Assembly: GCA_020052955.1 (NCBI GenBank)
Contig: JAGVOB010000004.1
Location: 12,522-76,521 of the forward strand
Reading direction: 5' to 3'
Length of the DNA: 64,000 bases
Source: Candidatus Omnitrophota bacterium
GTDB taxonomy: Bacteria > Omnitrophota > Gorgyraeia > VGKN01
The notes below the pieces were generated by a model, which was not told the origin of the DNA, made no database searches, and worked only from the letters and a program-made list of their open reading frames with translations. Positions 1 to 64,000 of the stretch are shown here, one piece after another. The position numbers and the translations under genes are program-made. Within the stretch, counting starts at the first letter, position 1. Each line of letters starts with the position of its first letter.

Positions 1-927
1 TATGGTCTAGAGGATATTTTTGAGATTTCATATGATAAACCAAGGCATACTATCACCGTTAGTCTACAAAATGAAAATCCAAAACCTGCTAAAGGCGGCT
101 CGATATTCCTGACGCCAAAGCATCTTCCAAAGGCATTTTTGGAGACCCCAGCAATCTTCCTTATGACATACGGATTGCTGGAGCTCCCGATAGCGGCTAA
201 CCTCTTAGGTATAGCAGGCGTTCCCTATGCGGTTAGTATTGGATACCTAGTTGCTCACGCTATAGGGGTGCTTCTTGACGCGCGCAGGGAAGGCCATAGC
301 GGATGGAAAGAAGCCCTGCAAACACTTAATCCGTTTAACAGGCCGGAGGTGTATATATTAACAATCCTGACAGGTTTTATAGGATATATGGTAGTGGCAT
401 TCGGCTGGGTAAGCCCGATAACATTAAGCGCGATTGCCGTCCTGACAGGTATCCACTGGCTGATTAACAGGTATTTCTACCCCAAAGAGGTGCGCTCATT
501 ATTCGGCAGGCTGGTTGAGATAGAGGCAAGGCTAAAGAATGATATGACTGATGAGGCGCTTAGCCAGATATCCGATATATTTAACGACATAGGCAATGAC
601 AAGGTAAAGACAGAAACGCTGAAGAAACTCCTGATAACGCGTAGCGGCGCCCTAAATGAGACCTTTGAATCAACAAGCAAGATAATGGCATTGGCTTATA
701 TGCTTTATGAAAATAAAACAGATGAAGCTGCTGCATTTGCGCAACAGCACAATTTAGCAGGCCTTGCTGCACAAGATAGTATAAACTCTATAGTAGATGC
801 TATAAGAGATGCATTGAAAGAAAAAACAGGCTTGGCTGCTGTATCATTGCAAGCTACTCCCGATACAACAACGGCTTCCACCACCATAACACTTAAGAAT
901 TTATTGACTGAACTCACCCAGAAGTAA
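1..927 (+). CDS. 3' end of an upstream paralogous giant membrane protein gene (partial, truncated by window start)
   Basis: Reading frame 1 is open from nt 1 through the TAA at 925-927 (the ATG at 139 is internal). Two TM segments are followed by a helical tail ending ...TTITLKNLLTELTQK*, which resembles the C-terminus of the 20,408-aa ORF (...TTIPRTQTLRELLIEFKQL*). The sequence TAACCGTATCATTTTT at and after the stop is identical to that after the giant ORF. Confidence 0.6.
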   Translation, partial: YGLEDIFEISYDKPRHTITVSLQNENPKPAKGGSIFLTPKHLPKAFLETPAIFLMTYGLLELPIAANLLGIAGVPYAVSIGYLVAHAIGVLLDARREGHSGWKEALQTLNPFNRPEVYILTILTGFIGYMVVAFGWVSPITLSAIAVLTGIHWLINRYFYPKEVRSLFGRLVEIEARLKNDMTDEALSQISDIFNDIGNDKVKTETLKKLLITRSGALNETFESTSKIMALAYMLYENKTDEAAAFAQQHNLAGLAAQDSINSIVDAIRDALKEKTGLAAVSLQATPDTTTASTTITLKNLLTELTQK

Positions 928-950
928 CCGTATCATTTTTTGTGTAACTA
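925..950 (+). other. conserved stop-codon context / 3' flank element (copy 1): TAACCGTATCATTTTTTGTGTAAC
   Basis: Near-identical to 62583-62608 (TAACCGTATCATTTTTAATGTAAC) following the giant ORF stop. Conserved across tandem paralogs. Confidence 0.5.
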
Positions 951-1207
951 TTTATAAAATAATATGTTATATAACAAGATGAGTCTAGGGTATCAGATTT
1001 AATTTTTCCTATACTTTTATTTTTAGAAAGGTCTGATTTTGTTTCTAACATTCAGAAAAACGGGGAAATTAATTAACGCTTCCCGGCAGAGCAACCACAT
1101 AATAATGAATGTATTATGCTTACTTGTAAAATCAAACAAAATTTAGATAATTGATCCTTGTATTTTTATGGAGACAGGATATAATTATAGTATGAAAACC
1201 TTAATGG

Positions 1208-1235
1208 TTGTCAATTTTTTTTGGTACTTTATACT
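1208..1235 (+). promoter_or_regulatory. candidate sigma70-type promoter for the giant gene (TTGTCA - 16 nt - TATACT)
   Basis: TTGTCA at 1208-1213 and TATACT at 1230-1235 in an AT-rich intergenic region about 120 nt upstream of the ATG. Sequence-pattern match only. Confidence 0.3.
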
Positions 1236-1314
1236 GATCTTTACAATTAATTTAAAAAGTTTTCGCGATTGCTTTGAAATTATAAAAATGCAAAATGATA
1301 TATAAACCGCAGCA

Positions 1315-1351
1315 ACGAGTAGAATTTTGATATATAAAAACTCGTAAGGGA
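1315..1351 (+). promoter_or_regulatory. 5' leader hairpin (ACGAGT...ACTCGT, 19-nt loop) abutting the RBS AAGGG
   Basis: Inverted repeat 1315-1320 / 1340-1345 immediately upstream of AAGGG (1346-1350). Possible translational control element; weak. Confidence 0.2.
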
Positions 1352-1358
1352 AACCAAA

Positions 1359-4300
1359 ATGGTAGACTGGCAGACAGGCGGTAAAAAAATGTGGATTAGA
1401 CTAATAGCCTTGGTTATAGCCGAGGTTTTTTTATTTACATCGATAGACCTGCCGTTTAGTAATTCTAACGCATATGCGTCTCCCCAGGAAAAACTTGTTC
1501 CCCCCATGCTCACAGGCAAATCCAAGGCCGACTCCCAAAGAGCAAGAGAAAATGAAATTATAGAAGGTCTGCTTCCATATCTTTTGAGAGACTTGAGGCA
1601 GCTTTATCCGGACGAATCTGCCCAGCAGATAATGTTAAGGGTACATAAACAATATAGCGATAGGATTACATGGTTTTCGGTTATGGGAATGACTGAAGAT
1701 AAACTGGGTCAGCCGGGGCATACCTATGCCTTTTCAATAGATAATAAAAAGGAGCCGGCACATTTTATAAGCGTTACCGTAACAGATGGTGCGACAAAAC
1801 TCCAGCCTTTGGATAAGATAAGTTTTGTAGATGATATAAGAAATAACAGAATCCGCCCCATCTCATTCTCTAATTTACCGATAACTGTTGCAGAGGTATT
1901 TGAGGTTCAAGGGGCCGGAGAAGGCGGGGGAAAAGAATTAAATATTGTTAAACTAGACAGTACAGACTTACTGTCTAAGGCAGCGGGGCTTTCGGGCTTG
2001 CTAATTGGTTACAGCGCAGGAGAGGGTAATATTGTATGGCGCATAGTCCTTGGGCTCGATGGTGTTTTCCTGCCAGGCCCGGGCACTATTATAAAACTTT
2101 CTCAGATAAATGACCTGGCTCAGATACTCCAAGCCCTAAAGGGCGGAACTGGACTTCCACAGGCAGATTTAGAGTTAACCCCGGAGAGATTAAAGTTAAT
2201 CCCTGCTATAACAGCTCCAGGCGCTCCTCAATTCCAATTAGTAAGAGCCGCAGCCACTAAAGAGGATGCCTCAATCACAGATAAACCCTTACGGGTATAT
2301 GTCTCAGAAGTTAATGTTGCAAAAGAGCCAGATATAAAGACACATCCGCCTACGGGGCCTCCGACAGGCTCCCTTGGCTTGTCTGCCATTATTCATCAAG
2401 CACCTATCACAGTAACCGTTTCCCAAATAACACCCCCTACCACAAGTAAAGTCCAAGTAGCTAAAGTAGAACAACCTGTAACTCCGCCCGCCGAAGAAGA
2501 AACCGCTCAGACACAAGAATTAGCCGAGACAATAGCAAGCCTTCAAAGACAGCTTGACCTTGCAAACCTCCTTCTTTTTACTCCATATCCTTCCAAAATA
2601 ATTTCTGCGCTTAGTGAAGCAATTAGGGTTGCAGAAGATGCGCTTAATAAACCAACACCTGATTTAGAGTCTCTAAGAGTGGCTGAGCTATACCTTAGTA
2701 GTGCTATAAATGAAGCCGTTATGACAGAGCCGATATCATACGTTTCTAGCTTACCGCAAGCCACAACACCACCCAGCGTAATTCCTCCGCCAACAGCAAC
2801 CTCCGCCTCTGTTACGCCCGAGCTGCTACAGGTAGCAGTAATTGAACCAACCAAAGGTGCGGTTGTAATGCCAAGGGTAGGACAATTGGCTGTTAAATTA
2901 GCGGCACTTGAGCCAGCAGGCGCTGCGGGAGAAGTTATAGTTACGGGAACAACGAGCAGTGTTTCTTCAGCCGCACCATCAACAGCAGCGGTTCAGCCTC
3001 TAAGAGCGGAGAAAGAATTAAGGGTTTCTGCTCCTGCCGTACCGTCTTCTATCAGTCCAGCCACTCAAATATTAGAGATTGTGATAAGGGCGCGGGCGTT
3101 ACTTACCAAAGCCAACAAAGAAAATGTTGTGAGCTTGTTAAAACAAACTGATATCCAAATATTAAAAGCCGCCCAGACAGAACTCGTAGATATAATAGGT
3201 ATCCAACCGACAGAAATTATGGCAACAGATGCTATAAGAATTGTTAAATTTACGGGGGTTCAACTTTATTACCAAAACGGAATGCCATATCTGACAGAGG
3301 TTATTGGAAAACTGCAGATTTATGATGCCCAATTTGAGAAGTTGTTTAGACAGTTAGCGGCCATAAGAGCGAGCGAAACAGTAGAGATAAGAGGCGCGAT
3401 AGAAAAAGTTCAATTGGCAAAATGGCAGTTTATAACAAAGGTTGTGCAGGAAGCGATTATTTTAAGAGAGCCAAGCGCGGCTATATCTACGGCACATATT
3501 TCCCCGGCAGTAACTTCAGCTGGCACTGCTGGGGCTAGTTTACCTTCAGTGCAAGGTCCAAAGGTAGTTGCTCTGGCAGAAAAACAATCTACAAGAGCTG
3601 TTGCAACTACAACAGGACAAGCAATGGCTACTACCGGCGTAACCAAACCTATAGTTGCTTCTGCTTCGCTTCCCACTGCGAGATCGACAACACTCGGACC
3701 GGCTGTGCGAACAGCTAAGGTAGCTAGTACATCTATCGCAATACCTGAAGTTGCGCCAACGATAGCACCTGCAGTCGTTCCGCAAGTTAAACCATCCAAA
3801 ACTACAGCCACCGCTACTGCTGCCGCAGTTCAGCCAACCACCAAAGGTATTTTTATACCCGAGTCCATTAAAAGGATTATAGTTACAGTTTCCCTGCTGG
3901 GAGTTTTGATTTTACTGCAAAATATACTTCCTTTACCCGGATTAGACAAGCTTGGAATGGGTATAGGCAGTATGTTTGGAATGAAGAGTGGGATATTTGG
4001 CCTTGGTCTTCAGCCTTATATCATCGCTTCTTCCTTGGTTCAAGTAGGTGCCGCCTTTATCCCTGCCCTTAAGAAATATGCGGAACTCGGCAAAAGCGGA
4101 CAGGCGAAACTGGCCGGGTACACTATGATACTTACGCCTATTATTGCGCTATTTTTAGGATTCTCTAATTTAGCTTCTATTGGTGGTATGTTTGCAATTG
4201 GTGGACTGACTATTTCAGGCCCGTTATTTTTAATATTAGCAGTTTTGGGTATGTCTCTTGGTTCGTTCTTGATAGCATTTGTCGGGGAAAGGATAACCAA

Positions 4301-7300
4301 GCATGGTTTGGGTCAGGGCACAACACTTATTATATTTACAAGTATATTAACCTCAATCCTTACCTCAGGGGCATCTGTTTTAAGCGGGGTTTCTGCGCTT
4401 CACATTTTCTCCATTTTAGCGCTAGGTGTAGTAGCAATTGTTTTACATGTCGTTACATTTAAGATACCACTTAAATTTGTAAGCAACATTAAAGAGGTAA
4501 AAGGGGAACTTCCTCTTAGAATGAACTACACAGGCACAAATGCCATTATGATAAGCTCTATGTTAGCGTCGCTTTTAGGCGCTGCTATGGGCGGTTGGCA
4601 GGGTATACTTATAAACAGCATAGCCATACTGGCTATGACAATTTTTACCACATACAGCACATTTACTCCTGATAAGTTGAGCAAAAACCTAAGTGCTCTC
4701 GGCGTCCAAGTGCCGGGAGTAGACGAGAGTAAATTAGGAAGTTATATATGGCGAAAAAGACTTTTATGGATAACGATACTGGGCGGCGTGGCTGTGGTGT
4801 TACTCGCTGGCTTACCAGGTCTTATATTAAACGGATTTAATCCCGCGCAGGCAGGTCCTGCAGGAATGGGTGCGATATTCGGAGGAAGTACGTTATTGTT
4901 GTTGGCGAATGCGCTGGTTGAGGTTTGGAATAATATAAGATATGCAGGGGCAAAGGGAGAAGCGCGAGGAGAGATTCAGCTGGCAGCAAAAGTCCAGAAG
5001 AAACCTATTATAAAAGTAGCAGGGTTTACCATTAAACAGATTTTGCCTTTTGGTATAACAGTTGCAAGTTTAGCAGGGATAGTTCTATTAAGTAATTATC
5101 TTGCCACAATAGGCGCTCTTATCGCGTTTATGTCAGGTATCTCTGTATTCGTTGTAATGGCGGCTATAATTAGTGCAATAGGTTATGGCGTGTATCTTAT
5201 AAGAAAGCATCAAATAGATTTTAATAAGTCTGTGGAGTTTTTAGGTGAGCTTACAGCGGGCCCAGCGTTTTTAATAGAAAACAGGGTTAAAGATTTTATG
5301 AATGAAGCGGAGACTGCCGCTAACCTGCCAGAAAATAGCAGATTTATTGAACAGTATGTAGAAGCACATAGAGGCGTTGCCGAAGAGCTTATCTTAAGAG
5401 AGCGCGCCAAGACAGAGATTATGAGACAATATATCGTTAAAAAGACGCACGAACAGTTATTATCTGATAAAACCGCAAGCTATGAAGAGGCTGATGCGCA
5501 TCTAGGGAAAATAAGGATAGATGCCATTGCCTTAGGCATTACCGCAATACAGTTATACAGGAGACGCGTTTCGGGTGAGACCAGGCTAGAGGCAGATAAG
5601 CTTACAGGCGCCAAAAGGATTATAAGGGAAAATCCCGTAGCCGATTTTACAATTCATAGAAATCAGATATTCGGCATATGGTTTTTGACTGAGATTAAAC
5701 ACTTTAGGGGCAGATTTATGACATATTTAGTAAGGATATTGAGTCCGTTCCTTCCTGAGGAGGCAATGGCAAAGATTAAGGGGTATGCCGTACAGGTTCC
5801 CACAGGTGAAGGTAAAAAGGAAATGGTTGGAATTGCCGCATATGTAATGTCAAGGGCGAACAAGGGAGTGCTTTTGGCAACGCATGCGCCGGACCTTGTA
5901 TATGAACAGGCAGTGGATATGGGCGATATATTTGCCTCGTGGCTTGATACGTCAGTTGGCGCAGTAGGCATACCAAACGAACAGGGAGAACAGACGTATT
6001 ATACCTTCAAATATGATTCAGATATGAATGAGGTAGAGGTAAGGCATGAAAAAGAGACGGCCAAATTTATACCTGCATATGCGTGCGGCGCTACATACGG
6101 CACGATGTCAGCATTTAACTTTCATAAACAGTTAGAAAGGATGGGTAGAGAAATTAGAAGAATTTATTCTGCCATACTAGATGAGATAGACGAGATTTTG
6201 CTTATGCAGGGCGTAAACCCTCACATCATATCTAAAGGCGATAAGGATCCGTTTGTAGAATTGGTTAATCAGCATATGGAAGACATTCTTAAGGTTATCT
6301 CCAGATTAGAAGCCGGAGAGCTTATATATGAACAAGGCCGGGTGCAGTTGGTTAATGCAGGACGCATAGAGGAGATTCTTAAGGATAAAGCGCACTCAAG
6401 AGAGGTAGCGGCAATATTTAACGACTATAGAATCGCAAGCTTTATAATAGGACGCCTGGTTAAGGAGTTAGCTGATAATCCGGATAATTACACCGTTGAC
6501 GAAGAAACAAGAAGAGCAACATTAACAGATAATGCAAAGGAATATATCAAAGAGTTTCTCGGAATTCCCGATGATAAGAATCTAAATGAATGTCCGGCGC
6601 TTGCGCATTTTGTGTGGGCTGCAATGAACGTTCAATTTAACTGCAGAAGGACTACGAAAGAATTAAGCGATTTATTTATGGTTATCTCCCAATTAAGAAA
6701 GGGAGATGTTAGATTTGACGCGGCTTCTGGAAAGGCGAGTTTTGCTGATCAGGGAATTATAGAGAAGATACTACGAGACGAGGAGCGCGTAATGGCTGTA
6801 TCCAGCGTACTTAGCGATCCGACACGCCACATAATAGGTTATTTAATAGGAGAGATGCGGAAAGATAAAACCAATTTTGTTCTTAAAGATGGAAAACCAG
6901 CGTTAAGCGATAAAGGAAGTAGATATATAAAAGAATTCCTTGGAATTCCCGAAGAAGCAAATCTTAAAGATTATCCCAGTCTTTCAAGCTTGATAGAAAA
7001 AGCATCTGATTTTAGCGCTAAGCCGAATGTTTCTATAGAATATGGTCTGGTTGAGATTAAGGATGATAAGAGTAATATAATAGGTTATGACGTAGTAGGT
7101 TATAACTCATCAACAGGCCAGTGGATGATAGGCCAGACCTATACCGACATACATCAGGCTATGGTTATTAAGGAGTTGTTTGCTGAGGTAAATAAGGGCG
7201 TAAGAGGCAAGATACGCTTTGTGGCAGAAAATGAGGCTATAAGCCAGCAGATGAACCAGTTATTCCTTAAGGATTGTTATCATGAGGCGGGAACATCGGC

Positions 7301-10300
7301 GACTTTAGAAAGAGAGGCTGTAAGGAGAGAATGGGAGACTTTAGGCCTTTTGGTCAGGAGTCTTTCTAAGGATAGGGCACCTGCCGTTGTAAATTTAGGG
7401 GTTGATGTATATTTGACTCGCGAAGAAAAGGCCCAGCCTATTACTAGGACAATAGCCGATAACGGTCAAAGAATTTCCGGAACCCTCATAGGTGTTTTTA
7501 CGGACCAGGGGGTTAATTGGGCAAGATATACTCTTGCGCGCCAGTTGCGCGAAGAGGGTTTTGAGGTTTATATAATTGACCAGCATACAACACCGGAAGA
7601 GATTAAGATGGCTAAGGGAAAGGCTAAGGATTTAAAACATAATCCAGACCCAAAATGTATTTTCATCATGAACCCAAGAGGAAACCGCGGGGTCAACCTG
7701 GCCGGTACTGTCCCGGATCTGCTATGTATAGCAGCAGAGATACCCGACACTAAAGACGCCCTTATACAGTTACTCGGCCGTATCGGAAGGCAGGGCGTCC
7801 AATGTTTTGTAAAGGAGATATATTCCCTTAGCGATAGTGATTTGTTCAAGGAGCATAACAGAGACCTGTATAATAAATTTGTTAAAAGCGGCATGACAGG
7901 AGAGATTACAGGCAGGAGAAGGGATAGCGTTCTAAAAGGTATAGAGAGTGCGCAGGAGATAATGGCATTAAGGCAGTCCGGCTCGCGTATAGACCTCGGC
8001 AGGTTCTATGGGTTGGTTCATGAGACATCCCAGAGAAGATTCGCCATGGAGGAGGGTATAGGAAGGCGTTCTACAGGGGATTTGAGGAAATATATATTAG
8101 GTTTAATTGAAGAGGATATGAAGCCCGAGGTTAAGCTTAATATTTTAATTCTCTTAAGCCTCCTCAGCGAGGAAACAAAAGGGGCTGTTGTAAGTATTAT
8201 AGATGAAGCGATTATGAACGAGTGGAGTAAATATCTTTCAGGAATCCAAGACCTGATGAAAAAGATTCAACTTGCCCAGTTTAAAGGAAAAGATCCCTTT
8301 GGAGAGTTTGCTCTTGGAGCTGCGAGATTAAGAGATAGTTTTAAAAGAGAGGCTGCCCGCAATATTGTAATGGCTTTAGCAAGCGTACATCCAAAAACCC
8401 TTTTAGAGATAAAACAGAGATTAGATGAAGAAAAGAGGATAGAGAGGGAAGCGGCTGCCTATTTTGGGGAAAGGCAGGTTGCATCTGAAGGAATAACTTT
8501 TGCGCTTGAGCCTGCTATAACAGAGGAAAGAGTATTTAGTGCCGCCGGCATCCTTAAGGATTTAACATCTCTAGCGCTTGATAAATCAAGGGCACCACAG
8601 ACAGGGATGCTCCATATTAAAGTGGGCGATGCAGAATTTATCCAGATAGGAGGGCACCTGCAGCATGGTGCAAATGCACCTGTTGAGGTAGTCTCATATG
8701 GACAAAACGGCGATACAACAAGGCCTGTTATAATAGTAAAGCTGAATCGTCCGGAAGATGTGGATAGAAAATTTTTAGAAGATTTTCTGATTCCCGATTT
8801 ACGTATGAAAATTTCTCCTAATGCAAGGGTTATATTTGTGTATTCCGGAAGCGAGAAGGAATTTAAGGCAAAGAGATATGAGATAGCGAGGGTTTATTCG
8901 CTGGTAAACTCTATCTCCAAAAAACATACAAAACAGGCAATCACCGGTTATATATGGGACAAAACAAATGAATCTCCAGCGCTTGAGCAGATAACGCCTT
9001 ATGTTATTCCTGTTTTCGATAAACTTGCCCACTGGCTGTCAAGGCTTAAGACACGAGCTCCAACGAGAGAACAGCTTAAATATAATTTTGTTCAGGTTTT
9101 AAAGTCTATTAATAGGGAAAACATAAAAGAATTAATTACAAATATCACGACTTTCAGATGGCAGGATATAAATTCTCAGAGTTTATTTAAAGTCTTTGCT
9201 CCCTCCTTAATGGTTTTAGGTGCAGTATTGCTCCCGTTAAAAGTATGGCTCTCGGGAGCTGGTATATCCGGGATAGAGGCCTTAATTACACCCAAACCTG
9301 TCTTGACTCAACAGGCACAATATGCAGGGCAGAGTGCAGGGTTAAGCCCTGATGAAAGAAATGAGATTGCACAGGTTCCCGTAGGGCAGCAGGTTGCTCA
9401 AGAATCCGCAGTACCTCAAGCGGTTGTCAGGGCAGAGCAAGCGCCTGCTGTAGCGCCTCAAGAAACAACCGCTGAACAGGCTAAGCCCAGCATATTCCAG
9501 CAAGCTTGGGCTGGCATAACAGGTCTATTCGCTTTTACAAAGCAACCCACTCAAAGAACTCAAGAAACTCAATATACTCAAATTGGTTTACCCAGCGCGC
9601 CTTATCAAGAGGTTACAGTCGGCTCACCACCTCCACCACCTCCGGAAAAACTAAATCCATTCCAGCAGTTCTGGTCTTTTGTGACAACCTCTTTTAGCAC
9701 TAATACTAATATTGCTTCTGCCTACACAGGCGTACCTCAGGTTGAAACATATACGCGTGATTTGTTACCATGGGTCATATTTTTTGGCATATTTGGTAGC
9801 ATTCTTGGTGTAAGAAAAAGAGATTTAATTGGAAATTTCCTGCGCAATGGATTAACCAATATTCCTGGCTTTATCAAGATAGCAGTCCCTGTCCTTATAG
9901 TTATGTTTTTATTATCAAATTCTACGCCAACACAATCAGTAATTGCACCGCCCCCAGCCAAAGAAACAGTTGTGCCTGTTATTATACCTACTGTAGAGCC
10001 CATAAAAAATATGGCGGAACTGCCCGCTAAGATTGATGAATTTTACACTTCCACTGAGATTTCAAATTTATTACTTCCGCCCGCACTAATATCTCTACAA
10101 AATGTAGGTAATTTCTTAAAAGTGCTCGGAGGTACTTCTCTAAAAACTCCAGAGGAAATAGTTGCCCTTAAGCAGGCGCAATATCAGAGAGCCACAGGAA
10201 AGACAATGAGTGAAAGTAACCGAAGCCTTCTACTTGAGTTTGAAAGTAAGAGGAACGACCCAGCTTCTTCGCCCGAGGAGGTATTTCAGCTATACAGTAG

Positions 10301-52300: not shown

Positions 52301-55300
52301 TCCTATTGTTAAACTCATTGGCCCTGCATCTAATATCCTTCTTCTCATTGCCTCCATATTCCTTTATCTTCACACCGACCCCTCCACCCTAACTACAGGT
52401 TTATTTATCTGGTCAATATCTGCCTCAATACTTAGCATACTTACCGCAATATATGATTCTGCTAAATTCCAGACAGGGGATATTTACGAAGCGAGAGTAA
52501 GCTTTTTAATAGAAAGGTTGAAAAATTCTGATCGGGGTGTTTGTGCTAATGCTGCAATAGCTTTGGGTCAAATAGGCGACCCAAGAGCAGTTCCAGCTCT
52601 AATAGAAGCCTTAAAAGATAGAGATTGGTATGTCCGCTCCTGTGCCGCAACAGCCTTAGGCCAGATTGGTGACCCAAGAGTTCTATCAGCACTCAGGAGT
52701 TTACTTTTGCATACAAGCCCAATGGTGACATATACATATGAAGAAATAGAAACGCAATTTAGAGAGGGCTGGTTTGGATACTCTGGAGATTGGATATCGA
52801 TAGAAGTAATAAAAGAAGGAACAAAGTCCAATCCCGAATATACAGCTATTGAACAAGCAATAGCAGCTATTGAAGCTCGGATGGGAGAATTGCCAACCGG
52901 AACAGGTGTGGCAGGAAAGAATGCCCTTGCAGCCGCCGAATCATCCTTAGCCAATATCTTCTCCTATGCCTTTGGCGGAAGGTTTGCAAAGTTAAACTGG
53001 TTGCCACGACTAATATACCTTCCTTTTATGCTACTGCTGGATGAAGTTTTGCATATTAGCACTCATTTAGCCACAGGCTTTGGCATGCCTGAGTTTATAT
53101 GGAATACCAAATTTTTCGGCGTAAAGATAAACCCGAGGGCGCCGCCTATTGTAAAACTGATAAGTCCTATCATTCATATCCTGCTTATACCTGCCTCAAT
53201 CTTCTTATATTCCTTAGTAAAAGACCCAGCCGCTATACATACAGCACTGCTTATCTGGTCGCTCTCATTCTCAATATTAAGCCTATCTGCAAGCATACTC
53301 AGCAATATTAAATACAAGACAGGGGATTTATACTTAACTGCCCCCGCAATTGGCGGTGCCCTTGGCATCTGGAAGGACATTGGCTTAAAAGCCGAAGACC
53401 TAGCTAGTATAGGGTTTATGGAGGGTGCATTCTTTGGAAGCCTGTTGCTTTATAATATGTGGCTAGGCAATGTTTTTAAAATGATTGAGACAGGTTTTGG
53501 CACATTAAATATTACTCAACTCTCCACAGGTTTGTTTGCAGTCCCTGGCTCCCTATTTCTTTTTACAGGTATTATATTTATTGCCTACCTTCTCTTAGGT
53601 ATATTGTTTCCTTCTGAAGGAGTCTCCACAATAAAGAACGCGGGCCTCAAGACACATTTCTTGAGAGCACTAAATGCTACAGGCGTAGCTATGTCAGGCG
53701 TTTCTCTTGCAGGCGTACTCGCTTTATCCTTATCGCTGGCAGGCTTGCCAATTGGCGTCTCAGTTATTGTCGGAGTATTAACAGGGGCAGTTTTACATTC
53801 CTGGCTTAACTGGCAGGCCTACAGCAGAACCATCAAAGACAAGGCAAAGACTTCAGGCATCTTAACAACCCGTTCTATAAGCATTGGAATCTCATCAGGA
53901 CTTCTGATAGTGTTTACCAGCCTGTGTCTTAGCCTATTATCGTCAAAATTTGGATATTTAACCCCAGAATTTTTCACGCTTCCGATACCAGGTTTTTCTT
54001 ATATTATAAACGTTGGCCTTATGCTTTTAGATGTACCCAACAGATTCTTCTGGGTCCTTGGCAGCATGCCATTTCTTATATGGACGTTGGAGTCGTTTTT
54101 TAGAAAAGGGATATATAAAAGCCTTAAAAGAGGTAAATTCCTTCCTTCAACAGGTCGTTCAAGTTATTTTACGTTAAATGTAATACAGGCGCTTCTTTTT
54201 GCATCTTTTTCCGTCCCCTTTATGTATTTTTCATCCGCTGGAGCTATTCCATTGCTCATAGTATTTTTCTTCACAGGGCTTATGTATGGATTTATCTATG
54301 ATAGAGCGGGCATAACAGGTTCAATAAACGCCCATCTTGTCGTCAGTATTTTCGCGCTGCTTGGCACTGATAGTATGCTATCTTTTACAGTGCTCTTCGG
54401 GCTATTATTGGGGGTCAATATAACATTGTGGCTCATCTATTGGTTATTAATGCGGCCCTTGGCTGGACAGTTACCGCGAGAAGGGCATATAAAAACCGCT
54501 GAACCTTATCCGCATTTCTGGCAGGAATTAAACCTGATTATTCCAGAGTTTCATATTTCCCATGAGGCAATAAATGGCTGTGATTTCATACCTGCCGAAG
54601 AGGTCTTTAAGGAACATAATCGATTGATTTGGTATGAACATTCAGCTGAAAAGCCACAATTTGTATTTGATATTGAGGGCTTGGTTGAACCAGTAGAGAG
54701 AATACTCAAGTTAGAGAAGAGGATAATTAGCTTGCATGAATTGCAACTGGTTGATTCAGAAGAGGAGGCCCGCACGCTTTTACCGATAGCTATTCTTATA
54801 CTTGAATTGGAACGGGCGCAACTGCATCGGCTTATCAAGATTCAGCCAAAGGCAGATAATACACCCGTTGTATGTATGGAAATGATTCTCGCATTCTTCG
54901 CGGTTAGGCGTTTTCTGCTCTTCCCAAAATATGTTCGCCAGCAGATGATTGAATTTTATAAAAAGCGCGATGCAAATTTTGCAGATGTTCTTACCACCGC
55001 TGACCGGGCAATAGAGAAAAGTTATAACAAATTAACTCTTGCAGAAGGGCAAGAACTAGCATTGATGCGCGCTACTGGCATAAAGGTTAGCGATGATAAG
55101 GAAACAGTGCCAAACCTTATTGACTATAGCATATGGCTTAGCAGACAGGCGGGTGTTAGTCTATACCAAGATGACATTGAACGTGTAAAAAGTTTTGTTA
55201 GGAAGTTTTTAGCCGACAGGCTCAACACATACGGCTTCTCTGGCATGTCAAGGCAAAAGGTTATAGAGGATATAATCAGGCTTTGGCATGAGGAAGGTAA

Positions 55301-58300
55301 GGTAAGGATAGAAAAGGAGGATGAGCGTTCTCTTGAAGCCTTGATGGACTCTCTCATCCAACCCCACAGAGAAGAATTTAAACCTCTTGTTGAGCAATAC
55401 TGGGCTACTGAGGATAGTAAAAAACGGCAATCTTTGGAAACACGAATAAACGCCATAATGGATACCATAAACGTATACAAAGGCACAGAAGCATCTGAGC
55501 TTGAACTGGCTGATGTTCTGTCTTTGGATGAGTTCTTAGAAACCCCATATGCCCAAAGATACATAGAACTTGCAAAACATGCACTTCTATTTGGGCAGTA
55601 TATCCCGGAGTTTATATTTGCAGGTGCGGCAACAAGGCTTAATAAAAATTTAGAAGATTTAGGCTTACCTTCTACCGGTCCTATGTATCCATTAGATATC
55701 TGGAGTATTGCCGAAGAAGAAAAGATAGGTCTTATACCACCCAGCGGAGCACGCTTAAGACTTGGGATGGGGCCAAGACAGATTATCGCCTATAGGAGAT
55801 ACTTAGAGAACTTAGCCAGAGAGCAGGGTGTTAGTCCAAAGACAGTCCTTAAAAACCAAAGACTCGTCATCCATATAAACGATGAGATATTTGATATGGT
55901 CTTAGATGATTTTATCAAAAACGACTTTTATGGATTTAGTCCAGATAAGGTGTTCTTCATCAATGTAGACCTAAAATCAGGATATCTCCTTACTGAAGAG
56001 GGAAAACTCACCCCATCCAAAGATAGCCCAAAATTGCCCTATGGTCATGGCTATGCAAGTATGCAGATGGTAAAACCAGGCCTTGCCTTTACCATTGATA
56101 TATCGCAGCAATCTACAGATAGAAATAAACAACTCCGTTATCTTAAAGGAGATATGCTTAGTTATCTTATAGACCATGATGCGGCTTTAATTGGCACACA
56201 CAGGTTAAATGACCTAACCAAATTCACTCCAACTCAGGTTGTGGACATAGAAAAACTTGCCTTTGGTATGTATCTCATTGAACAAGGAAATGAGGTGATA
56301 GTGGATTCAGTTGAGAATCCGGAAAACCAGAAAGGCGGCCAGCTATTACAGAATAAGGATACAAGGAAGAAATTTCTTATAGAAGTTTCCAATTTTAGAG
56401 GAAGCCCGGGGCTTGATTCGTTGATTAAAAGAGGCGTAAATGTGCCATACAATGCCTTTAGACTCTTATATGACCTTAAAGCAGCAAAGAGGCTTCTTTT
56501 TCAGGGGATTTCTTATAATGTAAGATTTAAGGATGGTTACTTCTATTTAGAATCTGTAACAGGAGATGTTACCCAGCTTATAGATGCCAAAGTTGCAGGT
56601 ATTAAAAGACAAGGTGAGCTAATCCACGACTTCAAAGAACTCGATAATCTTAACGACGCACTTACATTCTTAGGGCAAAGCGATGAAGAGATTAGGGTTG
56701 GCAAACTGATAGAGTTTTTTGAAGAGGACGCGGTTAAGAAAATAATAAAGCGTCTTGGTGGAATGGAAGGAAGAGCAGTTATTCTTATAGGAGGAACTCC
56801 AGGCGCAGGCCTCAAATATTTTGCAAATGTAATACTTAATGAACTTGGAAAGAGAAATAGGCGCGCTAACATCCTTTCTGCTTATAATTATTATAAAGAC
56901 TGGACAGAGATGCCACACAGGAAAGATGGTACCCTTGATTTTGAATCGCCTCATAGCCTTGATATAGAGTTGTTGAGGTCACACGTTAAAGAACTGCTTA
57001 AAGGTAATACTGTGCAGATTCCTCAATATGACTTTACAGAAGGCAGAAGAACAGATATGACAACCAGCATAAGGCTTGAGGAGGGCGAGGTGTTGATTCT
57101 TGAGGCTATTCATGGTTTAAGCGATGAATTTTTAGCAATGGCAGAAGGTGTGCCTGTGGTTAAAGTGTTTGTTGATTCAGATGAAAACATTCGGCTCCTT
57201 CGCAGGATGGGTGAATATGCAAGTGAAAGAAAAATAGACCCTATAGTAACCATAGAAAGATGGGATCGGGTTAAAGAGGCCGAGGTTTCCTTTGCGAACC
57301 CCACAAGGCAGAAAGCAGAACTTGTTGTTAACACAGGAGATGTTGTGGAATTTAGGAAAAATGAAGTTTCCAAGATGCTTCCTGTTTTAAATAGTGCCTT
57401 GAACAGGGCTTTACAAGAGAACAAACACAGCGTTGCTGATAAGATTAAAGAACTCCAGCGATTCTTAAGCAGTCTGCCTATTGAGTCGATGGATAAATTA
57501 ATTAAGGCTGCAAGGTCAAAACTGGCTATGCACAAGAAACCGGTAGTTATTGCTATAGATGGCATACATGGAGTTGGAAAGACAAGCACTGCAGAATTAC
57601 TCGCAGGAATCATAGACGGAATTTACATATCCCTTGGCGAGATATACCGTGTGGTTACCTGGCTTGGGTTAGAATACGGTTTAGATATCCATAATCCAGA
57701 AGATATCGCAAAACTTAGAGGATTTTTATCGCAGATAACGACTCTTGAAAAAGACTATCACGTTAGGTTCATATGCGTCAAGGACGATGCACCTTTAGAC
57801 ATTACCGAAGAACTGTACACAGAGCGAATCAGCAAAAATGTGTCTGATTTTGCAGAATATATTCATAATGAAGTAATAGAGTTTTCTAGGGAAATTGTGG
57901 GAGCCCTCAAGAAAAGAGGTAAAAACGTGATAATTGAAGGACGGATTGCAGGCACTCACATCGCACCCGACGCCGATGCAAAAGTCTTCCTAAACGCAGA
58001 TTATATTACAACAGCCTCAAGAAGGGTAGAACAATATATACAAGAAGCCGATATCTCTGGGGAACCTATGATTTTCAAGACCTCATGGGAAAGGCTTATT
58101 GCAAAACTTAAGAAAGTATATTTTGAGGTATTTGGTCCTATGAGCGAAGAGGATTTTGAACACAGACTTACATTATATGGCTACGAGGGCCTAAAAAATG
58201 AATTACTGGCTGAAATAAACTTACGACTTAAAGCAAGAGACGAAAGAGACGAAAATCATATCGAACAATATATGCCCCCCGTAGATGCCAAAGTGACCCA

Positions 58301-61300
58301 GGATATAATAAGAGTTGACACAACTGAGCTAAATATAAATCTTGTTGCAGAACTTATACTGGAACTTTTGACAGATGTATTTGCAAAAAGAGTCTCCGGT
58401 CTTAGTCCGCCATTTAAAAAATTTGACAACTTCCTTGAATATTACAATTACCTGGTAGATGAGAGAATGCATTTTGCCCAAGAGCAGGGCTGGATTAAGA
58501 AAATAAATTGGCAGATTGAAGAAGCGGCAATGGATTATACGGGAAGACCGGCTCAGATAGAAGTTACAGGAGAATCAGCAGAAGGCCGTTCACAGGAAGC
58601 AAGAAAGATTTTAAGGTGGATATTCAAAACAAGTCAAACACGCTATGACTTTATAGAATATTTGAGGCATTATCAGGTAGGCCATACCTCGCGCAATAGG
58701 CTTACTCCGTTATATGTAGCAGTGTATAACTATCTTTCCGAAAGGCCGCTTAACGATAGAAGGGTTATGGATGAAAATCCCGGCCTATTTATAGATAATC
58801 TTACAATTAAAAGCCATCCCTGGTATGGAGATTATGATTTGGCTAAAGAAGGTTTTGAGCCTAAAGAAGATATTACTCTTCCTGTTCCTCAAAAAAGGAA
58901 GATAAGAATACTGCTTATTGGACATGCTGAGAAATTCGGACATCCAGAAACATCCTCAAGCACGCTGTTAAGGGAGATACTTAGCAGGCTCCCCGCAGAT
59001 AAATATGAGATTGAGATTGTAGCCAATGACGTTATTTATCAGGAAGTAATCCACGATTTTTCTGGGGATGGTTCTTATCAACGCAGGATAGGCTATCAAT
59101 TTGAGCAGGATGGCGAATTCTACGATACAGAGAAAGGCGTTAAGTTTGTAAAACTTGATATAAATAACCCTCGTCAAAATCTATTAAGCGAGGATTTTCA
59201 GCCAGATGGCAAGTATGATATTGTTATTAACTCAAGGCTCGCCGTTCAATATGGTGAATACGAGGAAAAAGTAAGCCAAATCAGAAAAAATTCTATGCAA
59301 TATTTAGCCGAAGGAGGAATTTTATTTTTTGATACAGAAACCACAGACCGCGCGGAAGTTATCCGGTTACAAGACGGAGTGTTCGTAGTACAAGAAAGGG
59401 TTATACCTTATCTTGATATATGGGCATATACGAAGAAGATAAAGCGGATTGTATTAGATGATAAAGGTACTCAGAGGGTAACAGATAAGCATAGAGATTT
59501 AATAGAAAGAGCATTTAGGCTGGCCGAAAGATATGCTGATATAAATACACCTATGTATGACAAGGCAGTAGTGGCAGACCTCTTGAGAAGGATAGACGAA
59601 GATTATCTTTTTATGCTCGCGGTTTTACTCTCAGGCGTCTCTATAGAAAAGATAAAAAAGCATTTTGACCCTGATATAGTTGAAAGACTTATCGCGATGA
59701 GAAAACATATGAAAGAGATTACGCCTGAGCCAGCTTCCCGTGTCGGGGAGTTTAATATCTTGCGCTCGAAATCCTGGTTTAATATCTCATTGGAAGGGCA
59801 AGCTATAGAAGACCTGAGACTTATCTATTCAGATGGAATATATGAAATTTACTTAGGCAGAATAGACAAAAGAGAGGTATTGTTAATAGATAAAAGATAT
59901 AAAGGTAAGTTTATAAGAAGAGCATTGTCAATTGAAGAACCTCGGTATACAGAAGACGAACAGATATTTAAAAAAGCTGTTGCTTATTATCTAGAATATG
60001 CATATCGGGAAGTTGGCGAGAGTGTTTTATCCAGTGCCCATAGAGCATGGCGCTTATACAATTCTTATAACTTGTCCGATAGAAGGCCAGGCCCATGGTC
60101 TAATACGTGGTTAAGATTTTATGTTGCAGCAGTTATTCTCCATCGTCTTAAAGTAGAATTGTATAATGATATTTTAAATATACTCTCACGGCTTGATAGC
60201 GGTCAGGCCGTAGATATCGCTAAAGAAACAAGAACTCTCTCGCAAAAGCATAAGCTGGCACAAGAAGAAATAGAAGAATTACAGGAGATGATTGTCTACG
60301 CCTTCAATCCCCAAAAAATTATGCATAGGATAAATACTAAAACATCGAGAAGAATGCTTAACAATTTATTTAACCGCATGAGCAAACCCAAAGGAAAATT
60401 TTCTAGTAAACAAAAAGAAGAGATTATGCGGCTTTTCCCTGCGCTTAATCAATTCTCCCCGGAGGCGTTAAATCATGTTATGAGAGTAATAGAATCTATA
60501 AGCAGGCTTGCTAAGGGGGATATCAAATACTTCGAAGATGGTCTTAGCGCTGAAGATAAAGCACTTATGGCAGAGGAAGGTCTTGAGCGCTATAGAGCAC
60601 ACATACAGGAACTTCATATGAGATATCGTAATCTTATGCAGACCAATCCAAGCAATAAGACAATATTATGGCTGGCAGTTATTTTTCATGATATTGGTTA
60701 TACCATATCCGGAAGTCATAGTCATAACCACCAGAGATTAGGAGTAGATATAGCAAGAAAGGCTTTAAGTGAGCTTGGGTATTTTGAAGAAGAAATCGAG
60801 TTAATTACCAAATTGATAGAAAATCATACAGCCACAGGAGAAGTCTCAATCGGAGAAAGGTCAGCGCGTTCGGCGTTAAAGATTCTTGAGGTAGAGGATG
60901 TGGATAGGCAACAAGATTTTGCCAATATGCTGTTAGTCCTTAACTCAATGGATCTGGCAGGATATGAGGAAGCAAGAAATAGGCTTAATCTGTTCTGGGT
61001 TGAAAGATATGTAGGTAACTCAAATATCGGTAGATTGAAAAATAAAGACTCCGATACTGAAAATTATATTGATAGATTAGAAAGGCTTACCTGCAGCCAT
61101 ATTATGGAAAAAGATAACCCGCAAAAACGCCAAATGATACACTCTGCAGTAGATAGTCTTATTGCATCGGATGAAATAGGATTATTCAAACGTCATTTTA
61201 ATAGCACGCTCGAAGTTCTTTTTATACTTCCTATTGTATTTTATTTGGCAGGAAATGACCCAACCTATAGGAGTTCAGTTAAGTTATTCCGCTTCTTGAC

Positions 61301-62585: not shown

Positions 62586-62608
62586 CCGTATCATTTTTAA
62601 TGTAACAT
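62583..62608 (+). other. conserved stop-codon context / 3' flank element (copy 2)
   Basis: TAACCGTATCATTTTTAATGTAAC. See the copy at 925-950. Confidence 0.5.
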
Positions 62609-62689
62609 ATTAAAAAATAAATATTTATGAAATAATAACTAAAGTTGAGTTTTAAGGTTTAGGTTAAGGCAAAATGAAAAAGCCAGAGG

Positions 62690-62870
62690 TCATAGGCGAT
62701 AAGCCATAAGCACAGAATTAGAGGGCAAATGAAGCCTTCCATAACTCCTAGGGCTATTATCCCTCCCTTTGCTCGGGATGGTGAGCGTTAGGTGAACCAA
62801 AGGGTGCGGTTTTCCCCTCGTTTAGCTCGAAACTCTGCTGGCCGCGAATGTTAAATGGGTAATTTATAGT
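62690..62870 (+). other. GC-enriched island inside otherwise AT-rich intergenic DNA (possible small structured RNA or terminator-like element; unassigned)
   Basis: ...gggctattatccctccctttgctcgggatggtgagcgttaggtgaaccaaagggtgcggttttcccctcgtttagctcgaaactctgctggccgcg. Contains the inverted repeat CCCTTTG...CAAAGGG followed by GCGGTTTT. Confidence 0.15.
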
Positions 62871-63081
62871 AAGAATAAACAAAATTTAGATGTTTGGGTA
62901 TTGTAATTTTATTTTTGTTGGGTATACTTTTAGTAGTGGATAGTAGGAAATAAAGGTTATTTTTTTTAGTGACTTAAAAAGGGTGTTTAAAATTATTAAA
63001 AAATGTTTTTAATTAATGATATTTTATATGTACTTTCTAACATATTATAATAACATTTTCCTTAATTAAAGGGTGTAACAA

Positions 63082-64000
63082 ATGATAGACTGGCAGACAG
63101 GTAATCACAAGTTCTGGTTAAAACTTATAACCTTGGTTATAGCCGAGGTGTTTTTATTTACCTCAATAGACCTTCCTTTATCAAAGCCCGATATCGCCCA
63201 CGCCTCTCCAACTGAAAAATTAGCGCCGCCGTTAGTCACAGGCGGTCAATCCGATAAAGCCCCTATTAGAAAAGCAAGGCGAGTTGCCGGAGAAGACACA
63301 TTACAAACTGCCGCACAAGACCTGCCGATAGTTGTTGAGGGAGATAATCTATTTAAAGCAATAGATAAAGCAGTTAAGCACATCTCTCAAGATGACATAG
63401 CGCAGAGTGGAAATAAAGACAATATCCCCGCCCTACTCTTAAATATCAATAACAGGTGGGTCCTTTTGTTGTTAAATACCTTAACAAGAGACAATATACC
63501 GCAAAACGTATTGGATATGTTGGGCTCTGAGATAGTAGAGCGCCTGATAGAAAGCGGTATGGAGCAGCCTGCAAGAGCAGACCTATCTACTGCGGATGCA
63601 CCAGGCATGCAAATAAGCCAGGCTGTTTTAGGCGATGGCCGCTTATCGTTGAAATTAGACGAAAGAGGAGCTATCTTATTATCCGGAGAAGATGATAACA
63701 GATTAACCCTTGTTGATTTACAGGTAGATATGGAGAAGGTGCCTGATTGGCTGAGGCCGCCTCAACAAGGCCCTCCCGTCGCTGTCTCCACGTCTGCCAT
63801 TTCAGTTCAGTTTAGATTTGTAAATCTTAATCTGTCCGCATCTGAAAGCACAGTAGAAACAGCAGAAGTAGCACCAGCTACACCCCTACAAGCAAGGCCA
63901 GCTAGCGCAGCGGAACTCAAGCGCGCCGAAGAAGCCCTCAAGCAAGCCCAAGCAGCAGCTATTCCAGTAACAGTTACAGCACACCCGGCAATACAAATTC
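63082..64000 (+). CDS. 5' end of a downstream paralogous giant-protein gene (partial, runs off the window end)
   Basis: ATG at 63082 is preceded by AAAGGG (63068-63073) with the same 8-nt spacing as the giant ORF. N-terminus MIDWQTGNHKFWLKLITLVIAEVFLFTSIDLPL is nearly identical to MVDWQTGGKKMWIRLIALVIAEVFLFTSIDLPF of the giant ORF. The frame stays open to nt 64000 with no stop (checked codon by codon). Confidence 0.7.
   Translation, partial: MIDWQTGNHKFWLKLITLVIAEVFLFTSIDLPLSKPDIAHASPTEKLAPPLVTGGQSDKAPIRKARRVAGEDTLQTAAQDLPIVVEGDNLFKAIDKAVKHISQDDIAQSGNKDNIPALLLNINNRWVLLLLNTLTRDNIPQNVLDMLGSEIVERLIESGMEQPARADLSTADAPGMQISQAVLGDGRLSLKLDERGAILLSGEDDNRLTLVDLQVDMEKVPDWLRPPQQGPPVAVSTSAISVQFRFVNLNLSASESTVETAEVAPATPLQARPASAAELKRAEEALKQAQAAAIPVTVTAHPAIQI

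Follow-up and report, generated by a model that had tools for sequence, protein, structure and literature searches.

Conserved leader peptides and boundary elements in a probable array of very large membrane-protein genes from an Omnitrophota-type bacterium

Results

Organization of the window and of the giant open reading frame

The 64,000-nucleotide (nt) stretch of DNA analysed here (positions 12,522 to 76,521 of contig JAGVOB010000004.1, referred to as the window) has a G+C content of 41.7% and is occupied almost entirely by a single plus-strand open reading frame (ORF), the giant ORF, flanked on the same strand by the 3' end of one probably large gene and the 5' end of another (Table 1). 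The G+C pattern by codon position (GC1>GC2>GC3) is uniform from end to end of the giant ORF, indicating that it is coding throughout. The number of hydrophobic segments in its product was estimated with a crude predictor (Kyte-Doolittle windows of 19 residues with a mean of at least 1.6). No marker gene lies in the window. It is probably a portion of the chromosome of an Omnitrophota-type bacterium, carrying a co-oriented array of genes whose very large products would cross the membrane many times and contain enzyme domains.

The upstream fragment encodes two or three hydrophobic helices and then a helical tail ending in TITLKNLLTELTQK. At 37% identity (E 3e-36), this tail matches the C-terminal end of an ORF of at least 2,581 amino acids (aa) that precedes the ortholog of the giant gene in L004, one of five loci from other genomes described below (L001-L005; up and dn denote the genes on either side of a boundary). 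The downstream fragment aligns with L001_dn over 236 aa at 33% identity, and the frame of L001_dn stays open for at least 2,663 aa; both apparent orthologs are cut off, by a frameshift or where the fetched DNA stops. Protein homologue searches with both flanking fragments and the SecY-SecA region of the giant as queries gave no matches. The two spacers (431 and 496 nt, 25-32% G+C) have stops in all frames and hold no credible small ORF, and both neighbours of the giant are long ORFs.

Head-to-tail genes on one strand had been proposed from an initial reading of the sequence (the original prediction), and each was found to be a separate gene with its own promoter-like site, Shine-Dalgarno sequence and ATG. 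The adjacent ORFs could instead be parts of a single, even larger gene broken up by errors of assembly or sequencing: West-Roberts et al. (bioRxiv 10.1101/2023.11.21.568195) report two adjacent giant ORFs that merged once a local assembly error was corrected, and frameshift-like breaks are visible in L003 and L004. The length, low G+C content and stops of the spacers argue against this, as do their presence in independent assemblies and the conserved promoter, leader, Shine-Dalgarno sequence and ATG before the next ORF, which opens with a conserved signal peptide. We regard a split gene as extremely improbable.

Table 1 Coordinates of the features of the window
Feature	Coordinates	Strand	Description
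Upstream large gene, 3' end	1..927	+	308 codons and TAA (925-927); frame 1 open from base 1
TAACCGTATCATTTTT, copy 1	925..940	+	12-mer TAACCGTATCAT takes in the stop codon
Control region 1	1134..1185	+	AAACAAAATTTAGAT 1134-1148; -35-like TTGTAT 1158-1163; 16-nt spacer; -10 TATAAT 1180-1185
Conserved 5' leader 1	1204..1263	+	Short hairpin; T-run 1215-1222; TACTT; TTTACAATTAATTTAAAAAGTTTT 1240-1263
Shine-Dalgarno sequence	1346..1350	+	AAGGG, 8 nt before ATG
Giant ORF	1359..62585	+	20,408 aa; zero internal stops; ~85 hydrophobic segments
Shared leader peptide of the giant	1359..1478	+	MVDWQTGGKKMWIRLIALVIAEVFLFTSIDLPFSNSNAYA followed by SP; KK n-region; h-region with invariant Glu; AxA at aa 38-40
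Hairpin and U-run within leader codons of the giant	1406..1437	+	Hairpin 1406-1427; dG -11.6 kcal/mol; z -3.5
SecY-like channel domain	3858..4928	+	aa ~834-1190; 10 hydrophobic helices
Divergent SecA-like region	5778..8417	+	aa ~1473-2353
Tandem duplication	26835..32648	+	~960-aa unit; aa 8493-9511 vs 9456-10430; 37-91% identity
Enzyme domains near the giant C-terminus	56778..60848	+	PRK/uridine kinase aa 18474-18661; cytidylate kinase aa 18731-18896; HD aa 19757-19830
C-terminal tail module of the giant	61536..62582	+	HEGLH at aa 20120; hydrophobic helices; RALYTGLVEFTKKGEL and LSGLLNEDERFKEIKEII; end ...TQTLRELLIEFKQL
TAACCGTATCATTTTT, copy 2	62583..62675	+	Start of ~90-nt post-stop block, 87% identical to the orthologous spacer of L001
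55-nt G+C-rich element	62802..62855	.	Opposite orientation in the orthologous spacer of L001 (L001 9664-9718); 82% identical
Control region 2	62877..63009	+	AAACAAAATTTAGAT 62877-62891; -35 TTGTAA 62901-62906; -10 TATACT 62923-62928; T-run 62960-62967; leader block 62986-63009
Downstream gene, 5' end	63082..64000	+	306 codons visible; runs off the window end

Neighbouring genes share a leader peptide

The N-termini of the giant and of the downstream gene, thought at the outset to be near-identical signal-anchor peptides, have 41 of 66 residues in common (62%, E 2e-22). The leader of the downstream gene comprises aa 1-41, with AHA before SP. Cleavage probably takes place after the AxA motif, as read from the AxA rule. 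A comparison of four leader peptides with NCBIfam gave no model at E<=10 (that the KxYKxGKxW model is present there is an expectation only), and the first 4,200 aa of the giant matched no signal-peptide family in Pfam.

The MxDWQTG N-terminus had been proposed as a search key. A scan for the leader pattern covering one genome per species yielded five further loci in three metagenome-assembled genomes (MAGs), two labelled 'uncultured Planctomycetia' and one 'Candidatus Omnitrophota'; relatives were found in genome contigs only, and none in metagenome or viral contigs. Two leader-bearing genes are visible in the window, and two per genome in two of the MAGs. In L001, L002, L004 and L005 the leader-bearing gene begins 146-551 nt past the end of a long ORF on the same strand (at least 3,168, 1,040, 2,581 and 3,283 aa, respectively, all except that of L004 remaining open up to the edge of the retrieved sequence). 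The downstream leader-bearing genes are likewise open to that edge, reaching at least 3,394 aa, and the seemingly short genes in L003 and L004 are frameshift joins.

The gene boundaries carry a conserved series of elements

The boundaries have a common order: a stop codon inside TAACCGTATCAT, an AT-rich spacer, the A-rich AAACAAAATTTAG, TTG...TATAAT, a conserved leader of ~170 nt, a Shine-Dalgarno sequence and the conserved peptide of ~40 aa. The identical stop context proposed for the upstream gene and the giant is present as TAACCGTATCATTTTT on both stops; this 16-mer has exactly two copies in the window (925 and 62583), on the plus strand only, and its 10-mer core ACCGTATCAT has no further match there even with one mismatch allowed. 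The identical 15-mer AAACAAAATTTAGAT at 1134 and 62877 is found only in the two spacers. The predicted ribosome binding site geometry also agrees, the second AAGGG (63069-63073) again standing 8 nt before an ATG.

Control region 1 aligns with the TTG...TAtAaT of the second window spacer, of L001-L004 and of L010, a Joint Genome Institute (JGI) metagenome contig. The spacers of these loci share, in order, CCGTATCAT at or just past the stop, AAAcAAAAtTTAG, a -35 TTG, 16-17 nt, TAtAaT, a T-run, TTACTT, TTTAAAATTAATTTAAAAaGTTT, and the Shine-Dalgarno sequence with its ATG. The boundary layout recurs in L001, L002 and L004 (two MAGs) and in L010, with long ORFs on both sides where the DNA allows. 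The features common to L005, in the third MAG, are the leader peptide and the head-to-tail arrangement only.

When the second window spacer was compared with its ortholog in L001, identity was 87% in the first 90 nt past the stop, 73% in the first 150 coding nt and ~48%, the background level, elsewhere. Since the boundary blocks are conserved and their flanks are at background, they appear to be selected elements and not leftovers of a recent copy. The contrary explanation, that the shared ends are functionless remains left behind by a recent duplication or by gene conversion from one neighbour to another, draws on the identical 15- and 16-mers of the two window copies and on the synonymous sites of the first 33 codons, which agree beyond what codon usage would give (278 same-codon pairs vs 182 expected). 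However, the elements are kept between genomes in which the proteins are ~30-40% identical outside the leader and the neighbouring DNA is at background, which points to purifying selection rather than recency and makes functionless remains very unlikely.

The sequences conserved at the boundaries look regulatory. The TTG...TATAAT site would act as a promoter, so that the genes of the array would be transcribed separately under like control. Two other promoter readings were rejected: a sigma-54 promoter in the conserved leader, where the conserved GG/GC pair is absent, and a second sigma-70 promoter formed from the T-run, TTACTT and TAAAAT, where either the spacing or the -10 is poor. Rfam gave no match at gathering thresholds across the window and the five loci, and none in the second spacer at E<=1. 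The post-stop block and the G+C-rich insert fold no better than shuffled sequence.

A 12-nt motif recurs at large-gene ends and upstream of parA

The occurrence of the motif was first counted in ~124 kb, comprising the window and L001-L005. Seven of eight copies of CCGTATCAT are on the plus strand, no more than ~140 nt past the stop of a long ORF, and of the three copies in L004 two are spaced by 11 nt. When metagenome contigs were scanned for exact matches to ACCGTATCATTTTTNNTNTAAC, 14 loci were obtained. One of these, L010, is another long-ORF end with the same promoter and leader behind it. In six, copies repeated in tandem (AACCGTATCATAACCGTATCAT) occupy the interval from the stop of a jag-like gene to the parA start, in the gene order rnpA-yidD-yidC-jag-parA beside dnaA-dnaN. 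The other seven lie within coding sequence and look like chance matches. The motif search put forward in the original prediction, run on relatives and metagenome contigs, has thus produced more copies both at long-ORF ends and between jag and parA. In the tandem loci (L011, L013, L014, L015, L016 and L019; e.g. L014 1605-1645) the short jag-parA gap is filled by (T)AACCGTATCAT at 11-nt spacing. The DnaA and ParA proteins of L014 fall into 90%-identity clusters with Omnitrophota MAG proteins.

Relative to transcription, the motif at parA is oriented opposite to that at large-gene ends; this makes a role as RNA unlikely, and the simplest reading is a DNA site bound by a protein. Because the 12-mer is found in tandem between jag and parA, and so is not private to the large genes, it looks like a lineage-wide protein-binding site, not a recombination site. 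It is a candidate target for a DNA-binding protein with other sites in the genome, and here would mark the upstream edge of the control region of the next gene.

The alternative is that the boundaries are cassette junctions, with TAACCGTATCAT serving as a site-specific recombination site that shuffles units of spacer plus gene. The post-stop block of the second spacer is 87% identical to that of L001, yet the tail and domains of the L001 upstream gene (radical SAM, NDK and methyltransferase) differ from those of the giant, as exchange of units would produce, and a 55-nt piece of the spacer is inverted between the window genome and L001. L001_up nevertheless has RALY.GLVEFTKKGEL in common with the C-terminal region of the giant and may be a mere diverged ortholog, and the 11-nt-spaced tandem copies between jag and parA stand in a conserved origin-region order, which is not a cassette context. 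No palindrome, inverted repeat, hairpin or significant fold was detected at the motif, and no recombinase or integrase domain in the window or the loci scanned; neither the recombinase nor the palindromic sites of an integron-like cassette array were found. Cassette junctions are accordingly quite improbable. Of the two roles originally suggested for the boundary sequences, the regulatory one fits the recurrence of the layout in L001, L002, L004 and L010. The recombinational one is not supported, given the lack of a hairpin, inverted repeat or recombinase and the tandem 12-mers upstream of parA.

The inverted 55-nt piece has no flanking inverted repeats, Rfam match or significant fold. No sign of an invertible switch around it was seen, the inverted repeats of the spacers being AT-rich noise only. 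Contamination by an Illumina adapter was also considered, as a literature search on the 9-mer of the motif retrieves only the P5 adapter AATGATACGGCGACC. The reverse complement of the motif (927-936 and 62585-62594, reverse strand) has the 10 nt AATGATACGG in common with the 5' end of this adapter. Contamination was rejected because only these 10 nt coincide, the following bases differ, and the motif is tandem and position-matched in independent assemblies.

Hairpins in the leader codons and in the 5' leader

A hairpin and U-run within the leader codons of the giant look like an intrinsic terminator. The hairpin sits in codons 16-27 and is followed by U7AUUU, in the window (1406-1437 and 63130-63160; the hairpin of the downstream gene spans 63130-63149) and also in L001, L003 and L004. 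In these five of the seven genes compared, its free energy (dG) is -11 to -12 kcal/mol, with z of about -3.4 to -4.1, and the codons that form its two arms have the highest synonymous conservation. L002 and L005 lack it, and a search for compensatory changes found none. A separate hairpin in the 5' leader has weak stems and ends 0-3 nt before the T-run in six of seven loci.

Both structures could be attenuators, the leader-codon hairpin with its U-run and the 5'-leader hairpin with its T-run aborting transcription unless a ribosome or an antiterminator tracks the polymerase closely. The strength of the leader-codon hairpin in five of seven genes, the U7AUUU immediately 3' to it, the conservation of its arm codons and the placing of the 5'-leader hairpin beside a conserved T-run are all in keeping with attenuation. 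The loss of the leader-codon hairpin in L002 and L005, the lack of compensatory changes and the weakness of the 5'-leader hairpins are not; moreover, the arms encode conserved residues (ALV and AEV), so that constraint on the protein may suffice to explain the hairpin. Attenuation is rather unlikely.

The array members are not whole-length paralogs

The original prediction of whole-gene paralogs was not upheld. In phmmer searches no similarity was detected between the giant and the visible bodies of its window neighbours, and the giant compared with 2.6-3.4-kaa (thousand aa) pieces of the relatives of those neighbours gave nothing beyond short tail motifs and one 120-aa stretch of L002_up; whole-gene paralogy of the array members is thereby rejected. 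What the members share is a leader of ~40-66 aa together with the control region, and, less clearly, a helical tail. Their Pfam domain sets differ: PRK/uridine kinase, cytidylate kinase, HD, HEAT and DUF3131 in the giant; radical SAM, NDK and methyltransferase in L001_up; UDP-glucose dehydrogenase, phosphoribosyltransferase, galactokinase-like and PfkB in L005_up; and PRK and starch synthase in L005_dn. HEAT repeats occur in the giant around aa 9270, 13150 and 17050; its DUF3131 domain spans aa 14059-14156. The giant has several internal duplications: besides that in Table 1, a second tandem duplication was seen (aa 7601-7915 vs 8016-8320). From these duplications the gene has grown partly through local duplication.

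Similar helical tails had also been proposed. The last ~15 residues are clearly alike, with T.TL..LL.E[LF].Q. plain in four tails. The similarity of the rest is weak: the tails of the upstream gene and the giant are 27% identical by BLASTP (E 0.05), and profile-profile comparison gives E 4e-4 with a probability of only 35%. A single-sequence AlphaFold2 (AF2) model of the tail module had a predicted local distance difference test (pLDDT) score of 41.6, was uninformative and was not used.

HExxH motifs occur in the tail modules of the giant (window 61716-61730, aa 20120-20124), L001_up (aa 3009) and L001_dn (aa 1369); the giant as a whole has four, vs ~0.2 expected. The tail module matches Pfam DUF3267, a putative zincin peptidase, below threshold (E 0.014); it may act as a membrane-embedded peptidase in processing of the protein. 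The C-terminal ~300 aa of L001_up (aa 2847-3142) recur at 36% identity inside L001_dn (aa 1209-1512; L001 13625-14536), which may reflect either a domain duplication or the trace of an old gene fusion.

The giant contains a SecY-like channel and a SecA-like region

The Pfam SecY profile matches the giant at E 3.8e-36 over positions 2-303 of 306, scoring 125 bits against a domain cutoff of 32.2, and SecY chains in the PDB match the same domain at E 1e-17. An AF2 model of the domain has a pLDDT of 85.6, and its top Foldseek matches are all SecY (TM-score 0.75-0.80); the alignment used for the model was built from ordinary SecYs, which favours a SecY-fold outcome. The domain scores 74 bits against the cutoff of 253.6 for canonical SecY (NCBIfam TIGR00967 equivalog), and is embedded in the giant rather than being a stand-alone protein of ~430 aa.

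The SecA-like region matches Pfam SecA_DEAD at E 2.9e-9 and SecA_SW weakly, below threshold (E 1e-3). NCBIfam SecA and SecA2 models match in pieces (profile positions 93-290, 315-583 and 957-1034), all far below their cutoffs. From the sub-threshold SecA_SW match and the piece at 957-1034, part of the SecA scaffold may be retained. The Walker B motif, DEID, is intact.

Among 1.84 billion representative proteins, searched exhaustively, three others (P0001, P0002 and P0011) carry SecY and then SecA_DEAD in a single chain; all three are partial and encoded on 5-9-kb contigs from MAGs under various labels. The N-terminus of P0001 is a related leader, and L004_dn, the ortholog of the giant, reaches the SecY domain before its contig ends. 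The Walker A motifs of the three proteins retain GKT or GKS. No strong hydrophobic segment lies in aa 34-839 of the giant, and P0001 has extra transmembrane (TM) segments in the corresponding interval.

Discussion

The shared peptide would be a Sec-type signal sequence, probably cut past AxA, that directs every member of the array to a common route of membrane insertion. The fused SecY/SecA module would then be a dedicated translocon for this leader-addressed route, serving its own polypeptide and perhaps its leader-bearing neighbours. This is the least certain step, and the assignment of the module to the shared-leader route is a tentative one that we consider possible but doubtful. A fuller proposal is a private export route for oversized membrane proteins, in which one member carries the fused SecY/SecA, all carry an MxDWQTG...AEVFLFT...AxA leader addressing that module, and early attenuators are added; as a whole this is speculative and unlikely. 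If true, the attenuators would allow transcription of the 61-kb gene only when translation is engaged, and the route would parallel SecA2/SecY2 but be built into the substrate itself.

Several observations weigh against the overall reading of the window, from the array and its boundary units to the fused translocon. The Walker A motif of the giant is PTGEGKKE (window 5778-5900 region, aa ~1500), and because Lys replaces the expected Thr or Ser its ATPase is possibly inactive or impaired. Under the positive-inside rule, the orientation of the leader would leave aa 41-830 outside, while the first TM segment of the SecY-like domain, with KR before it, should begin on the inside; the stretch between them lacks a strong TM segment. 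SecY was not found in the first 2.6-3.4 kaa of L001_dn and L005_dn. L005 is without the motif and the promoter block despite its leader peptide, and the flanking genes of the window are cut by its ends, leaving 308 and 306 codons visible.

How polypeptides of tens of thousands of residues are made and inserted is an open question for the Omnitrophota giants. The common leader peptide, the SecY-like channel fused to a known SecA-like domain, the conserved promoter and leader layout, and the 12-nt motif that also stands at parA and the origin are handles that can each be tested in complete genomes and in one cultured relative. The leader and boundary motifs are also simple search keys with which such genes can be found and correctly delimited in fragmented assemblies.

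Comparison with known systems

The accessory Sec system of Gram-positive bacteria (SecA2/SecY2, with serine-rich repeat substrates) likewise has a second, divergent SecY/SecA pair alongside very large proteins with a special conserved N-terminal signal peptide, and the logic common to both would be that oversized substrates have a translocon of their own. In the window, by contrast, SecY and SecA are fused inside a substrate-like protein and are not separate genes, and Asp proteins, a glycosyltransferase cluster and serine-rich repeats are absent. The giant scores 18-48 bits against SecA2 equivalog cutoffs of 725-1100. All tests of membership fail, and the resemblance would be one of functional analogy only.

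In Apilactobacillus kunkeei the Giant1-5 cluster consists of consecutive large genes with a common signal peptide and C-terminal segment (PMC12863079). Unlike the window genes, to which they are unrelated, these Firmicutes genes encode proteins of 3-8 kaa that have alpha-helical repeats and DUF5776/SH3b-like ends but no TM helices, and have no Sec paralogs nearby (PMC12863079).

Very large and giant multi-enzyme ('Archaeovorin-type') proteins of Omnitrophota have been described by West-Roberts et al. (2023, bioRxiv 10.1101/2023.11.21.568195) and by Nielsen & Lui (2026, bioRxiv 10.64898/2026.06.07.730766). West-Roberts et al. define 'large' as at least 10,000 aa and 'giant' as at least 30,000 aa, so that the window ORF, although called giant here, is 'large' by their definition. 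They report a divergent SecA DEAD/preprotein-binding domain without the wing-and-scaffold domain and, in most loci but not all, a type II secretion locus upstream and small pilZ genes directly downstream. Unlike most of those loci, the window ORF has further long ORFs, not pilZ or type II secretion genes, as its immediate neighbours. SecYEG is mentioned by West-Roberts et al. only as separate genes elsewhere, and 'adjacent transmembrane regions' are suggested as a possible SecA anchor. In the window ORF these regions are a SecY-like channel: a complete SecY-like domain stands directly upstream of the SecA-like part, unlike in the published Omnitrophota descriptions. The text of Nielsen & Lui makes no mention of SecY, and the shared leader and boundary layout are described in neither text. 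The SecY-like channel may already be recorded in supplementary tables. In its other traits the window ORF is like the Omnitrophota class, with more than 10,000 aa, dozens of TM helices, a divergent SecA_DEAD, HEAT repeats, scattered kinase and nucleotide-enzyme domains, a signal peptide and TM topology, and diverged internal duplications; the loci nearest to the window also come from Omnitrophota-type MAGs. The window ORF thus matches the known Omnitrophota large-protein class, to which it adds previously undescribed details.

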